Assembly: GCA_963666735.1 (NCBI GenBank)
Contig: OY762926.1
Location: forward strand, 576,001 to 640,000
Direction: 5' to 3'
From: Gemmatimonadota bacterium
Lineage (GTDB): Bacteria > Gemmatimonadota > Gemmatimonadetes > Palauibacterales > Palauibacteraceae
DNA length: 64,000 nucleotides
Shown: positions 27,001-33,000 of the stretch, in pieces
Layout: each line of letters starts with the position of its first letter
Numbering within the stretch: position 1 is the stretch's first letter
Position numbers: made by a program

Positions 27001-30000
27001 GGCCCGGTCGCGTTCGCGCGCCAGCGTCTCGCCTCTCTTCCGCGCCGCCTTCAGGTCGCGCCGTAGGCCGGAGAGTTCGTCACGGAGCGCCGCGCCTTCG
27101 GTCTTCGCGGTCTCTGTTTCCGCGGGCGCCCGCACTTCCGGCCCGGTTCCGGCGGACGACATTCCCGCGCCCGAGCCGGGCGCGCGCGTCGTCGCCGGTC
27201 CGTACGAGCGTCGCCGTCCAATCCACCGCCGCGGCGGCCCGGCCAGCCGGGCCGCGCCGGCCGACACGGTGGCCGGGAGACGCCGCCACGGCCTGGCGAG
27301 GCGGAGCGCGGCCTCGGCCAACCGCGCTTCGGGAGGAAGAACCGTATCGAAGCGGATGCCTTCCGCCGCGGCGGTTCGCACATGGTGGTCGCCGGCGATC
27401 CGGAGGATCTCCTGCGTGGTCCGCTCGAGGCCGGCATCCGTTTCCACGCGCTCGCGCAGGTACACGGGATGGTCGAAGCGCCGGGCGGTGCGGCTGAAGC
27501 CGGGCAGGTACACCCGCCAGGCGCCGTCGTACACCGAGAGCGTCTTCGTGACGGTATCGCTCAGCGTGTACGTGAACCGTTGCGGAAGCACGGTCACGGT
27601 GGCCAGTCCGGTCAGCGCGCGAGCCACCCGTGCCGACCGTTCCAGCAGTGCGTGCGCATCGCCCCCGTACGTGGGTTCCGTGATGACGACGACCGGAAGC
27701 GGACGCGCCGGATCGACGAGCGCCGCGATGAACTCCTGCATCGCCTGTGGCGTCCACACCGCCGCAGCGTCGAGAACCAGCGCTTCCCCGCCCAGAACGA
27801 GGGGAGCGGCCCCGGCGATATGGCGCAACACGTCCGGAGGAAGGGTCTCCGGCGCCTGGCCGGACGACGCCGGCCAGTCCGGGACGCGGGCCCCGACCGT
27901 CGGTTCCGCCCCGTCGCCGGGCGCCGCGACGACGAGTTCCGTCACCGAGGCGCGGTCGGTCCCCGCGCCCAACTCCACGCGCGCCGCCCAGAAGTCCCCG
28001 CGGCCGCTACGCTCGCGGACCCCCCGGCAACGCGACTCTCCATCGTCGTACTGGAACGACCGGTGCCGCGCCGCCCTTCGCGGCAACTCGCCGCCGAGGC
28101 GGTGCCCGACCCAGCCCATGGCCGCCGTGCGGCATTCGCGGAGAGCGGGGCGCCCGTCCGCGCCATCGGCGATTTGCGCCGTCACGTGCAGGGCCCGACC
28201 CTTGGCGGCGAGTTCCCACGCCCCCAGTTGCTCAAGGGAGGTGAACGTCGATCCCGTCACAGTAGCAAAACCTTCACAAGTGTCTTCGGCAACAGGGGCG
28301 CCGCGCCGTTTGCGCGACGGCAGCACGCAATAAAACCGACAATATCAATCGTGGCCGGCCTCGCCCGCGCCGCTAACGCCAACGGCTGGCGGGGGAGGCA
28401 CCCACGCAGGGGAATATTACTGCGGCGGCGGCGATGGCGGCAGGTGGACGCTGAGCGGTCCACCGAACGAGGCTGGGCCGCCGGACTTCCTACACGTCGT
28501 TGACGAGTCTGTACTCGATGAGCGCGGACTGGCCGACGATGCTCACGATCCGGATGAGCCGCTCGGCGCCGTCGGGGTCGGTGACTCGCAGTTGCTCCCC
28601 CGGTAGGAAGGCGACGGGCTCACGCCGTCCCTCGTTGATGGCGAGGTTGGTTGCGTAAAGGTAGGTGCGGTCGAGCTTGTCCCGGATCGGGTTGAGCCTG
28701 CCCTTCAGGCCGGGGATCTTGCCCGTGCGTTCGGGAAAGATCACCGACCCACCGTCCGGCAGCACCGAGAGTTCGATATCCAGTGGATCGTCGCCGGGAA
28801 TCCATGCGGTCTCGACATGCGCGGCGTATCCCGCGGCGGCGGCGAAGACCGTCATCGGAAGCTCGGTGGTGTGAAGATCGACGGCGGTCTCGCCGCTTTC
28901 GCCGGTGGTTCCCGTCTTCCAGGTCTCGTTGGGGAACAGGACGAGCAGGTCGATGCCGGGCAACGGCGTACCGGCCTCGCTCGCGCGGATCACGGCGGTC
29001 GCCGGCGTCGGCGCGGTGGGCGCGGCGGGAATCGTGAGGAACAGGTCCGCGTCGTCGACGAGCCGGTACCGGGGCTCCTTGCCGCTCAGGCCGCGCGTCT
29101 CGCGCAGAATCGTCGGAACCCCGTCTCCTCTCCGTTCCATGAAGAACTGTCGCCCGCCCGAACAGAGGATCTTTCCCACCGGCATGCGGCCCAGCATGGA
29201 GGCGAGCGTCTGGTTACGGGTCGCCTGCCGGGTAGCCATGCTCTCGACGGTGAGGTTGTTCGGAAGGGCGCCGGGGGAGTTGATCTCGATTCGGTCGGAG
29301 AACATCGAGAGCCGAATGCGGCTGCCGCGAATCGAGTAGTCCCGGTGCGCAACGGCGTTGACGATGGCTTCGAACAAGGCCTTCTCGCTGTACTGCGGCA
29401 GATCGACGCGCGCGGGCTGTTTGTGCGCGCCGACTCGCATATTGCGGACGGCGAAGTTGACGGCTTCCGCGATCTGGCGCTGCAGCGGCCCGGTAATCGT
29501 CTGGGCGTCCAGCTGGCCGGAGCCCCTGTCCACACCCCGGTACTGCGTCGCGCTGATGCAGGCGTTCGGCAGCCATGCCTCCGGGGCCGCGGCGCACAAC
29601 AGCACTCCGGCCACCGTGGCGCGGCGGATCCCGCTTTCGTCGCGAGTCATAACTCCCATTTTTTCGAGCGCCAGCTTTGGGTCGGCGGCGCCCTCGGCAC
29701 TGAGCAGCGGTCCCCAGAGTTCCTCGTCGAGCGTGCCGAAGCCGGTGCCCGGAACAGGCTGTTCGTCGAACCACAGGAAACGCGCCTGCGACCGGCGCTG
29801 GGCGAGACGCAATCCCTCGTCGCTTGTCATCCTGCGCTTGGAACTGCCGATGCGGCGGAACGCCCCCCCCGGACTTTCATGCAGCGCGTAACCGGGCGGG
29901 ACCTCCACAAGAAGAAGCGCCCTGCCGTCGACCTCCGCACGGAACGTCGTGACCTCGATGGACGGCCTTACCGTGTCGGTACAGAGGTTGACGACGAATT

Positions 30001-33000
30001 CCTCAAGCGCATCCATCTCGCCGCGCGTCATTCCTTGAATCTGGCCGGAGTCGGTGACGCCGCAGAACATCACGCCGCCCCGCGCGTTGGCGAACGCCGC
30101 CAGTTCGTCGGCGATGCTCCTTCTCTCCGGGCGCACCGGACGGTTGCCGCGGAACTCGAACTCCTTGAATTCCGTGCGGCTGTCTTCGCCCAGGCGGAGC
30201 CGTTGCCGGATCTCGTTTTCGTCGAATGTCATGGGCCTGCCCCGAGCCGGTCCTCGCGCACCTTGCACGGGTGCGAACTCTGGCGGAAGGTAACGGCCCG
30301 AGCGCGCCGAGTGGTAGCGTCGTGAAACACTCCGCGTGCCGCTGGGGGGACGCTTGACCATCGTGAGCTCGGGCCCCCGATGGCTGGACGAGGGCAGTGA
30401 CGACGGCAATATTCCAAGGGACATTGAGGAGGACGGGTGCGCCTCGCCTGCCCAAGGGCGGCGGCGTCCTCGGAACACCAGGGAGGCCACATGAAGCGAA
30501 GGGCGTTTCTCCGAACCGGACTCACGGGCGCCGGCGTGGCCGGCATCGCCGCCGCACCGCTTGCCGCACCCCTCGCGGGCGCTACGGCGGCGCACGGCCT
30601 CGACACCATCTTCAATCCGCGCCGGCCCGGACGTGACTACAACGGCCCCGTCCGGCTGAGTTCGAACGAGAACCCGCTCGGCATCGCGCCGTCCGCGCGG
30701 CAGGCGATCATCGACGGACTCGACGAGGCGAACCGCTATCCCGGCGCGACCGGCGAACTCGTGCGCGAGGCGCTCGTCGCGCGCCTCGGCGTCAAGCCGG
30801 GCCAGCTCTTCTTCGGCTCCGGCTCGACCGAGATCCTGCGCATCGCCGCGGCGGCGTGGGCGGCGCCCGGCGGACGCCTCATATACGCCGAGCCGACGTA
30901 CGAGGACGTCCCCAGGTACTCGCAGCCGTTCGCCTACGATCACGTCACGGTTCCGCTCACGAGCGACTACGCCCACGACATCGACCGGATGCGCGAAGAG
31001 GCCGCCAAGTCGTCCGCGCCGAGCGTGATCTACTTCTGCAACCCGAACAACCCCACCGGCACGCTCACCTCGACCGGGCCGATCATGGACTGGATCCGCG
31101 ACGAGAGCGAGCAGCACCTCTTCCTCGTCGACGAGGCCTACTTCGAACTCGCGGACGATCCCGGCTACGAGACCTTCGTCCCGCTCATCGAGCGCCATCC
31201 GAACCTGATCGTGGCCCGCACCTTCTCCAAGGTGTACGCCATGGCCGGGATTCGGCTCGGCTACGGGATCGCGCACGAGGCCACCGTTCAGCGCGTCCTC
31301 CCGTTCGCGACGCGGAACGCGCCCAACCACGTCGCGGGCGTGGCGGCCGTCGCCTCGCTCGCCGACGAGGAGTTCTTCGAGAAGAGCGTGAAGACGAACG
31401 ACGAGGCGAAGGCGATGATGTACGAAGCCCTTGGGCAACTCGACATCGAGGTGCTGCCGAGCCACACGAACTTCATCATGCACCGCATCAAGGGAGAACT
31501 CGCGACCTACAACGACCGCATGTTCGAGGCCGGGTTCAACGTGGGACGCCCGTTCCCGCCCATGACCGACTGGAGCCGGCTCTCGATGGGCCTCCCCTCG
31601 GACATGGAGAAGCTCGCCGAGGTCATGATGGACTTCCGCAAGAAGGACTGGATCTAGCTAAGCTAGTTTCTGGGAACCCGACCCCATTGGGGCCGAAGAG
31701 TTGACATGCGAGATCTTCGCCAGGACCGTTGCGTCTACGGGTTGAGACCGCCCATTCGATAAGTGCGTGAGGGGAGGCGCCTCCAGGAACGCGCCAGCTC
31801 CAGCTATTGGGGCGGAGGGGGCATCTCGGGGCAGTCCTCCCCGGCCAGCGATGGAGTAAAGAGTACCGCCCGCGGAACGAGGCCGTCTTCCCGGATCGTG
31901 TACAGTAGGGATTTGTCGCCTGTCCACCACAGCGCTTCATCATGCACGGTTCGAGCAACAAGGCGACCCGTCTGGACGTCGATCACTTCGACCACTCCAT
32001 CCATCATTTTCGTCAAATCCAGCGGTACGAAGGGCACTGGGTCCGCCACGGCATCCCTCCACTGGTCGTCAGCTACGGTCGTTGCAATCCACAGATGTCC
32101 ACCCGCGTACTTCAAGCCTCTAATGACCGATGGCGCCGGAGCCTCGAGCGGATATCCTTCCAACGGCGGGCCTGGCGTGAACCAGGGGGGGCGCCCCTCC
32201 AACCGAACGACCCTGTCCGGATCCGCGGGATCCCACGCCTCGACGGCGTACTCGGTGGGTAGTGCCCGCCACACTCTCCCCTCCTCATCCGTTGCCAGCG
32301 GCGAAGGGAAGAAACGGCGCATCGCATCGTCCGTGGGTACGACGGCAATCATCTCGATCGTATTCCCATCCAGATCGATGGCTTGCGTGATCTCGGCGCG
32401 CTCCGAGTCGTCGGTGCGCCCCCAGCCCGCCAACACGAACCCCGAACCGGACGCCAGCGCCATGAAGTTAGTCGTGAACCTCGCGCCGATGTCTGTCAAC
32501 TGCATCGGCTCCCAAGCCGCGGACAGATGCGTAATTCGCCGAATGAATGGATCGAGCACCAGCACGCCGCCATCGGGCAGGGGCCGCAACATGCCGTGGC
32601 CCGGTTCGAAGAACTCGCCCGGACCTTCTCCGCTCCGCCCGAAGCTCTCCCGGTACGTGCCTTGGCCATCGTATACCAACATCTCCGCGCCGTTCTCCGG
32701 GGTGGCGAGCACGAAGTCGCCGGACTCGAGGCGCGTGATTATCGAGGGAGATCCGATGGTGCCCGGATCATCCATCGCTCCGAGACTGAGTGCCTCATCG
32801 AGCACGACCTCGCACGACGGCGGCTCCGAAGAGATCGGCAACACCTGCTGCGAGGCCGCCATTGCTGGAGCACCCGCGAGGAGGGCGCCCGGCAACCACC
32901 ACCGCCGAAGCGATGACGATGACACTGCGCCGACCAGGCGGGTCGGCTCTTGGGCACGCCACCTCAGGTACATTCGCCAAAACACCAAAACCGGCCATCG

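Follow-up and report, generated by a model that had tools for sequence, protein, structure and literature searches.

A Schlafen–GHKL ATPase gene with a C-terminal Ig-like and permuted-FHA module as a candidate single-gene defence system in a Gemmatimonadota bacterium

Introduction

A 580-aa protein encoded in a Gemmatimonadota genome ends in an all-beta tail of about 165 residues, which recurs at the end of several defence-like proteins. What this tail is, and what it may do for the enzyme to which it is joined, was studied in a window comprising the whole 64,000-nt stretch analysed (contig OY762926.1, positions 576,001 to 640,000). Coordinates below refer to the window unless the contig is named.

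28490..30232, minus strand: Schlafen–GHKL ATPase gene (Schlatpase) with C-terminal Ig-like + pFHA module, 580 aa
29825..30187, minus strand: Schlafen AlbA_2 RNase domain, residues 16–136 (Pfam; motif E16/E21/K23)
29060..29371, minus strand: GHKL ATPase core, E288 and N292 followed by HATPase_c_4 at 303–391 (Pfam and motif)
28757..29002, minus strand: module half A, residues 411–492, transthyretin/prealbumin-type Ig-like sandwich, divergent CarboxypepD_reg (model and fold match)
28505..28756, minus strand: module half B, residues 493–576, conserved, all-beta, permuted-FHA-like (pFHA) (model and fold match)
26473..28326, minus strand: candidate defence gene, PADLOC HEC-07 (E 1e-103), downstream and co-oriented
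24915..26420, plus strand: conserved left flank gene, membrane protein with weak CsgG-like/TPR matches
30437..31657, plus strand: conserved right flank gene, class I/II aminotransferase

Results

Pfam placed SLFN_AlbA_2 at residues 16–136 and HATPase_c_4 at 303–391 of the protein, and this succession of PF04326 and PF13749 is the domain order of Schlatpases. The catalytic Ex4ExK motif of the Schlafen domain, as defined in the accessible part of PMC13056530, was complete (E16/E21/K23). The E-x3-N motif of the GHKL domain was E288/N292, equivalent by pattern to E314/N318 of RzAgo, and each of these five residues was kept in 59–63 of 63 relatives. Judged by sequence, the first ~405 residues form a Schlatpase, a predicted tRNase, and the gene is a candidate for single-gene, abortive-type defence. 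Five further Schlatpase-like genes in the same genome lacked the module.

Searching the genome with the tail (tblastn) returned the three copies given in the initial annotation: its own, one at contig positions 23319–23819 (53%, E 9e-50) and one at 226996–227628 (36%, E 5e-23), the fourth-best match reaching an E value of 0.66 only. The copy at 23.3 kb matched query residues 375–575 with the end of a HATPase_c_4 domain preceding the module, in agreement with its earlier description as the remnant of a Schlafen fusion. At E ≤ 0.001, 519 module representatives were obtained, also as annotated. The tail alone matched nothing in PADLOC or NCBIfam, and PF13620 (CarboxypepD_reg) was not detected on its half A, so the statement that no Pfam or PADLOC model covers the module was accurate for this copy; it did not extend to relatives, since 27 of 66 aligned sequences matched PF13620 on half A, mostly below the cut-off and in agreement with the fold. 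At least 584 occurrences were counted in the GTDB scan, and close copies were found in more than 10 phyla. One of 72,556 plasmid records gave a match, none was obtained among phage records and IMG/VR, and the ESM Atlas gave none at 0.9 or more. The module was also seen to be spread among apparent sponge-symbiont lineages.

The ~165-aa module was modelled as an all-beta structure with a pLDDT of 97.6, its residues 1–83 being transthyretin-like (Z 7.9), as had been annotated. Half B folded by itself reached a pLDDT of 95 and was matched to the N-terminal FHA domain of EssC (chain 1wv3, Z 6.0, rmsd 3.8, 80 aligned residues; chain 5fwh, Z 5.6, rmsd 3.8, 78 aligned residues), these two chains ranking 2 and 4 of 48,161 and their matches covering model residues 1–90. 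Canonical FHA matches, in contrast, mostly ended near model residue 77; the same pattern for pFHA versus canonical FHA is given in the available text of 10.64898/2026.10.19.760177. All structural matches of half B were weak (Z < 8), and HmuY-like chains equalled those of EssC (4gbs, Z 6.5). Foldseek returned no match for half B at E ≤ 0.001 among PDB and viral models, and a sequence-profile search of the PDB gave weak matches to half A only (best E 0.005). Assignment by sequence to canonical phosphothreonine-binding FHA (PF00498), the type with a conserved GR/SxxH/NG motif, was rejected, as hhalign against 26 FHA domains gave a probability of 0.24 and a score of 10.4, inside the range of 40 column shuffles (mean 11.1); Pfam FHA was likewise absent among the 25 families listed of 48. 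The phosphopeptide-binding His was not conserved in half B, where the top His column reached 21% (109 rows).

Conservation was compared over 112 TIR fusions chosen by whole-length similarity. Mean identity was 76% for the TIR domain, 45% for half A and 70% for half B; half A is variable, and the conservation of half B comes close to that of the catalytic TIR domain. The key residues of half B were kept in 105–112 of the 112 fusions, with a near-invariant polar and aromatic patch of R512, N514, D518, R522, Y524, Y526, N529, P539 and D552.

Partner domains were scanned in 93 representatives of at least 230 aa, taken from the best 150 of the 519. The many immune-type partners described earlier were recovered, namely Schlafen and/or HATPase_c_4 (26), TIR (9), AAA_14/DUF4143 (7), kinase (3), caspase (2), PIN_8 (2), Trypsin_2 (2) and N6_Mtase (1), together with one M48 peptidase; DrHyd, AbiEii, Tox-RelA, HipA and DOC were not found among the 93. 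Proteins in which ParA/KGGVGR and TIR precede a C-terminal module made up 5 of 11 longer matches. In 76 of the 93, at most 15 aa separated the module from the C-terminus. Of the 173 B copies for which the sequence ahead was long enough, 162 were directly preceded by half A; the other 11 were first copies in tandem proteins with A later (9) or lay in short proteins lacking A (2). A quick tree gave 36 changes of partner label against a minimum of 14, and the TIR-bearing copies needed at least three changes, forced by strongly supported branches.

About 30% of the long representatives (28 of 93, called by hydrophobicity and inspection by eye) carried a signal-peptide or membrane-helix-like stretch ahead of the module, several without an enzyme domain. 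Fusions to caspase, trypsin, M48 and pYEATS domains had signal-peptide-like N-termini. Tandem repeats were present in 17 of the 93, 10 of them with a hydrophobic stretch, and the apparently exported or anchored members were often tandem repeats with a bare pFHA first. With 28 of 93 carrying such a stretch, and with caspase, trypsin and M48 partners that seem to be exported, the module is not confined to cytoplasmic effectors.

The genomic site is variable and of defence type. Both flanks lay on a single contig in 24 genomes of the genus; the site was empty in 19 of these, held HEC-07 only in 2 and held the Schlafen–module gene in 3; HEC-07 is independent cargo of the same slot. The insert of one genome (G241) included a type ISP restriction-modification protein. 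Among the matches listed, type I hsd genes occurred at 24 of the 80 closest GTDB loci and were absent from 56, and the module gene lay directly after hsdM at 18. Many module loci in GTDB sit among housekeeping genes. A PADLOC match lay within three genes at 7 of 16 TIR-fusion loci and at none of the other 9, a raw count without a random-gene baseline. Neighbours of the TIR fusions did not include ThsA (57 genes at 16 loci, on short contigs and with low-GC genes partly missed). The initial view of a shared C-terminal sensor module was borne out in part: architectures, tree and defence-type neighbours support a repeatedly swapped module with a probable sensor role; it had overlooked the apparently exported forms (28 of 93), and the module had already been named.

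Discussion

We favour, at a probability of about 0.6, the reading that the gene is a single-gene Schlatpase defence candidate whose tail is an Ig-like + pFHA ligand sensor that switches the enzyme. By analogy with RzAgo, the Schlafen tRNase would depend on ATP-driven oligomerization through the GHKL domain, and the Ig–pFHA module would occupy the place of the HTH, TPR or Argonaute sensor of other Schlatpases. Half A may be a variable spacer or stalk. The patch on half B is most likely the binding site of a single conserved ligand, which could plausibly be a peptide or another infection-linked molecule. Once occupied, it would bring the attached enzymes together or set them free, with an output set by the partner: tRNA cleavage (Schlafen), NAD+ breakdown (TIR), or proteolysis or phosphorylation (others). 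The module is probably a sensor; ligand binding, activation and anti-phage activity we infer. In its favour are the partner architectures, the C-terminal position, the repeated swaps, the fold and conservation of half B, the variable site and the hsd and PADLOC neighbours. The link to type I restriction-modification counts against this reading, being a feature of Schlatpases generally, as do two Schlafen–HisKinase fusions that gave no defence in E. coli, according to the part of PMC13056530 available. The weak structural matches, the 56 of 80 loci lacking hsd genes, the many loci among housekeeping genes, the 9 of 16 TIR loci lacking a PADLOC match and the roughly 30% of long representatives that look exported or anchored speak against it too.

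The module may instead be an autoinhibitory or oligomerization device rather than a ligand sensor, which we consider unlikely. The conserved patch would then pack on the protein itself or on a host partner and keep the enzyme off until some other release, such as loss of a restriction enzyme or a change in ATP. Clustering is established for TIR, caspase and kinase domains. With the Schlatpase case from the accessible text of 10.64898/2026.05.29.728809, the main partners all work by clustering, which suits such a device, as do the tandem repeats (17 of 93), the activity of the purified TIR domain of AaTIR without its tail (10.1101/2022.05.07.491051 and 10.64898/2026.05.28.727677, in the portions available), and a conservation of half B too high for an arms-race surface. 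The same patch, however, is carried by unrelated enzymes and by exported proteins without a toxic domain, and would be needless for a partner-specific inhibitor.

The exported forms bear on a further idea, to which we give a still smaller chance: that the ligand of the module comes from the cell envelope or the host (a sugar, peptidoglycan fragment or peptide) and signals damage to the envelope or contact with a host, not a phage protein, the cytoplasmic fusions being one use among several. Sets of Arg, Asp, Asn, Gln and Tyr are typical of carbohydrate sites, and such a set is conserved here; the hydrophobic stretch ahead of the module in 28 of 93 proteins, including 10 of the 17 tandem forms, and the signal-peptide-like N-termini of the caspase, trypsin, M48 and pYEATS fusions point the same way. 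Most copies are nevertheless on cytoplasmic nucleases and NADases, there is no lectin fold among the structural matches, and the signal peptides were called by hydrophobicity and eye only.

A wider extension of the sensor reading, which we hold to be doubtful, is that the pFHA half serves in pattern recognition and reads one highly conserved ligand on both sides of the membrane. The ligand would be read outside by tandem arrays on exported caspases, trypsins, M48 peptidases and single-pass receptors, and inside by tRNases and NADases. On that view AaTIR, the standard enzyme for making 3'cADPR, would have the pFHA as its natural switch and would work without a Thoeris effector next to it, and many phyla of host-associated bacteria would share the domain as an immune currency. 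A role as immune sensor has already been put forward for the domain, which limits the discovery value. The pFHA sensor idea can be tested directly with compact single-gene TIR fusions from culturable bacteria, Pseudomonas putida and Massilia among them, together with the near-invariant residues and the Schlatpase version. The same material may account for the control of AaTIR in the cell to which it belongs.

Comparison with known systems

The description of the module as unnamed is outdated: Li, Burroughs and Aravind (10.64898/2026.10.19.760177) named an Ig-like + permuted-FHA module and proposed its sensor role computationally. As far as the preprint's available text allows, the tail is almost certainly this domain. 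Shared are the order of an Ig-like domain followed by a permuted FHA of EssC type that lacks the phosphopeptide His, the partners (TIR-ParA, TIR, Schlafen, STY kinase, PIN and DUF4143) and the proposed role as a ligand sensor, and by text description the domain itself shows no visible difference. That the tail is distinct, and so still undescribed, is very improbable. In favour of a distinction, the listed partners DrHyd, AbiEii, Tox-RelA, HipA and DOC were not recovered among the 93, the available text is silent on exported forms, and likeness was judged from that text rather than from the preprint's alignment, figure 6D or supplement; but five independent features concur, namely the position C-terminal to ParA-TIR, the EssC-type FHA fold, the lack of a conserved His, the Ig-like domain directly before, and the Schlafen, TIR, STY kinase, PIN and DUF4143 partners. 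The accessible text likewise does not mention membrane-anchored forms, tandem repeats with a bare pFHA first, caspase, trypsin or M48 partners, AaTIR or the sponge-symbiont spread, and the accessible text of TIR surveys does not mention carboxypep, immunoglobulin or Ig-like.

PrrC-type anticodon nucleases sit inside type I restriction-modification operons. The module gene, a predicted tRNase gene, likewise lies between hsdM and hsdS/R at 16 of the 80 closest loci (among the matches listed), although the domains are unrelated and most module copies, the present one included, lie outside hsd operons.

Two Schlafen tails, those of the 380-aa E. coli fusion (cluster 4, in the part of PMC13056530 available) and of the HmuY-like pSlfn23, were compared with the module and showed no similarity. 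In pSlfn5 (RorSlfn5), as described in the available part of the same source, a Schlafen nuclease likewise carries an all-beta C-terminal tail as a swappable sensor; its Ig tail is joined directly to Schlafen, whereas GHKL lies between them here, and it diverges fast whereas half B is highly conserved, a point against the sensor reading.

AaTIR combines a TIR domain (2–144) with what an earlier Swiss-Prot match suggests is the module (167–321), a layout matched by a widespread family of ~332-aa proteins with the module at 165–329; the AaTIR studies (10.1101/2022.05.07.491051, 10.64898/2026.05.28.727677) used the TIR domain only in the portions available. No ThsA was seen beside such fusions at the 16 loci, read from short contigs with genes partly missed. 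The accessible description of the Schlatpases, including the SLFN-pAgo RzAgo (10.64898/2026.05.29.728809), mentions Ig-like tails in bulk and places Schlatpases in type I restriction-modification operons of Poribacteria. The N-terminal Schlafen (PF04326) and GHKL (PF13749) supradomain and the C-terminal sensor position are shared, whereas the sensor of RzAgo is an Argonaute core and that of the 580-aa protein would be the 165-aa Ig–pFHA module, with no guide RNA.

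Gene, domains and module structure

The following features were assigned (window coordinates; residues refer to the 580-aa protein).
28490–30232, minus strand: ORF of the Schlafen-module protein, translating to 580 residues
Residues 16–136: Schlafen AlbA_2, family match
Residues 303–391: HATPase_c_4, family match
Residues 411–492: half A of the module, transthyretin-type Ig sandwich (structure comparison of the model, Z 7.9, rmsd 1.9)
Residues 493–576: half B, pLDDT 95 when folded alone
26473–28326, minus strand: adjacent HEC-07 candidate (PADLOC), 617 aa
35045–36571 (region 34851–36605), minus strand: transposase-like ORF of approximately 508 aa, from sequence only

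Schlafen residues E16, E21 and K23 and GHKL residues E288 and N292 were all present. The last 170 residues gave no domain-family match in the scan that returned Schlafen and HATPase_c_4; the initial annotation of the tail as lacking a Pfam model thus holds for this copy but not for the family, as 27 of 66 relatives match CarboxypepD_reg in half A, mostly below the cut-off. The model of the whole module (pLDDT 97.6) consists of two all-beta halves, and both this fold and the transthyretin-like first half noted initially were confirmed. Half B, now also modelled by itself, had a HmuY-like chain as top structural match (Z 6.5), none being strong; the N-terminal FHA domain of EssC followed, with chain 1wv3 at Z 6.0 and chain 5fwh at Z 5.6, both of which cover all of half B. 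Many canonical FHA chains were also listed (Z 3.6–5.2), reaching only about residues 1–77, and a Foldseek search with half B returned no significant match. Half B has no sequence similarity to canonical FHA domains, and a canonical FHA was rejected on sequence.

Half B is the conserved part of the module. Mean identities among 112 TIR fusions were 76% (TIR), 45% (half A) and 70% (half B), and among 63 Schlafen fusions, picked by half B and therefore biased, 60% (Schlafen), 68% (GHKL), 60% (half A) and 75% (half B). Ten half B positions were retained in 105–112 of the 112 TIR fusions; the window copy has Glu538 where nearly all others have Gln. Judged from strand alternation, the conserved residues probably lie on one exposed face.

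Copies, partners and phylogenetic spread

Searching the genome with the tail recovered the three copies reported previously, namely its own, contig 23319–23819 (53%) and contig 226996–227628 (36%, the end of an AAA_14-DUF4143 protein), the next match having E 0.66. In the 23-kb copy the end of a GHKL domain precedes the module, and this is a remnant gene, as had been supposed. Approximately 3 kb from it lies a nucleotidyltransferase and HEPN-type pair (L239:3737–4544, contig ~19.7–20.5 kb), such as frequently flanks intact module genes elsewhere. Five other Schlatpase-like genes of the genome (contig 423575, 3886983, 3380750, 3329927 and 117411) carry no module, having no tail or HTH-like or TPR-like tails.

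The family comprises 519 representatives at 50% clustering. Among the 93 of at least 230 aa within the best 150, earlier partner counts were reproduced: Schlafen and/or HATPase_c_4 (26), TIR (9), AAA_14/DUF4143 (7), kinase (3), caspase, PIN_8 and trypsin (2 each), N6 methylase and M48 (1 each), with no effector family found in the remainder. An added search for longer forms gave ParA-TIR fusions in 5 of 11 matches. In a TIR family of approximately 332 aa (sources including Vibrio, Pseudomonas putida, Massilia, Porphyromonas and Prevotella) the module occupied 165–329 in 120/120 best matches. A quick tree of 94 modules required 36 partner-label changes (minimum 14, shuffled mean 63); partners are therefore clustered, yet swapped repeatedly, in agreement with the swapping among effector domains proposed initially.

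The GTDB scan gave at least 584 loci with half B, and the 80 closest (64–77% identity) span more than 10 phyla, with titles including Poribacteria, Latescibacterota, Nitrospirales, Chloroflexota and Poriferihabitaceae, lineages that we take to be typical sponge symbionts. Of the 301 genomes of this phylum, 28 match, and 26 of the 27 besides this one fall in two families.

Half A stood directly ahead of half B in 162/173 copies, and nine of the half B copies without it were first copies in tandem proteins. Of the 93 long representatives, 28 have a hydrophobic stretch ahead of the module and 17 have tandem copies, 10 of these 17 with both. Caspase, trypsin, M48 and pYEATS fusions have signal-peptide-like N-terminal ends, as judged by eye. 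B-(A-B)n arrays occur on signal-peptide-like caspase, trypsin or M48 proteins (P0128, P0155, P0189, P0214, P0183, L117:1926–3395 and L124:2609–4900, the last adjoining a Ser/Thr kinase gene); the modules of caspase P0189 and M48 P0183 are closely related, suggesting a recent swap. In P0245, P0258, P0263, P0249 and P0270, an unannotated N-terminal domain, one membrane helix, a Pro/Ser-rich linker and the module form an apparently receptor-like layout.

Genomic neighbourhood

The slot at window 26420–30437, between a TPR/CsgG-like and an aminotransferase gene, is a small cargo hotspot in the genus. Of 30 genus relatives, 24 had both flanks on one contig: 19 slots were empty, two held HEC-07 without the Schlafen gene and three held a Schlafen-module gene. 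The HEC-07 candidate has no Pfam match. The slot also takes a type ISP restriction-modification gene (L235:1423–4800); a protein of this type makes up the added insert of genome G241, and G308 has a similar ORF. Near the transposase-like ORF, other IS-like fragments, judged from sequence only, lie at 33.9–34.5 kb of the window.

Type I hsd genes were found in 24 of the 80 closest of at least 584 GTDB loci and in none of the other 56; the gene lay directly behind hsdM in 18 and between hsdM and hsdS/R in 16. Since Schlatpases without the module likewise occur in type I RM operons, this link does not single out the module. HsdM is joined in frame to a GHKL and module protein in L094:5319–8279, P0069 and P0273. 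Poribacterial type I RM operons (L042, L048, L051, L057, L070, L107) also hold SEFIR/TIR proteins, with a TIR-AAA_21 and DUF4276 pair between hsdS and hsdR. Among 57 scanned neighbours of 16 metagenomic TIR-fusion loci, PADLOC matches, some partial, occurred at seven loci (a raw count) and none at nine; no ThsA appeared among the neighbours called. A Sinorhizobium chiapasense plasmid island (L111:2024–10822) holds four TIR genes, including a ParA-TIR-module gene, plus AbiEi/AbiEii.

Function and relation to known systems

The module is real, well conserved and widely swapped. Here it forms the tail of a Schlatpase that is itself intact and whose gene occupies a variable slot of defence type. 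All functional steps of the proposed sensor mechanism are ones that we infer. The module might instead be an autoinhibitory or oligomerisation part, or a receptor for an envelope or host ligand. Against the sensor mechanism count the two Schlafen-HisKinase fusions that were tested in PMC13056530 and gave E. coli no protection, and pSlfn5, whose proven sensor diverges faster than its nuclease, unlike half B.

Three points merit passing on: the tandem forms that look exported, how conserved half B is, and the probable link to AaTIR. The module was not seen in the other literature searched. The Schlatpase preprint, too, records Ig-like tails in bulk. A computational description of the module, with a predicted function, is already published: the module called unnamed initially is almost certainly the Ig-like plus pFHA module described by Li, Burroughs and Aravind (10.64898/2026.10.19.760177, dated 22 October 2026). 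There the permuted FHA domain, first found in TIR-ParA systems, resembles the EssC N-terminal FHA without the phosphopeptide His, always has an Ig-like domain N-terminal to it, is partnered with TIR, Schlafen, STY kinase, PIN, DUF4143 and other effectors, and is suggested to have a possible role in peptide sensing; exported or tandem forms may already be in its figure 6D. Five of the features described there, compared by description, are shared by the module studied here, which is, matched on these features, very probably (approximately 0.93) the published Ig-like and pFHA domain.
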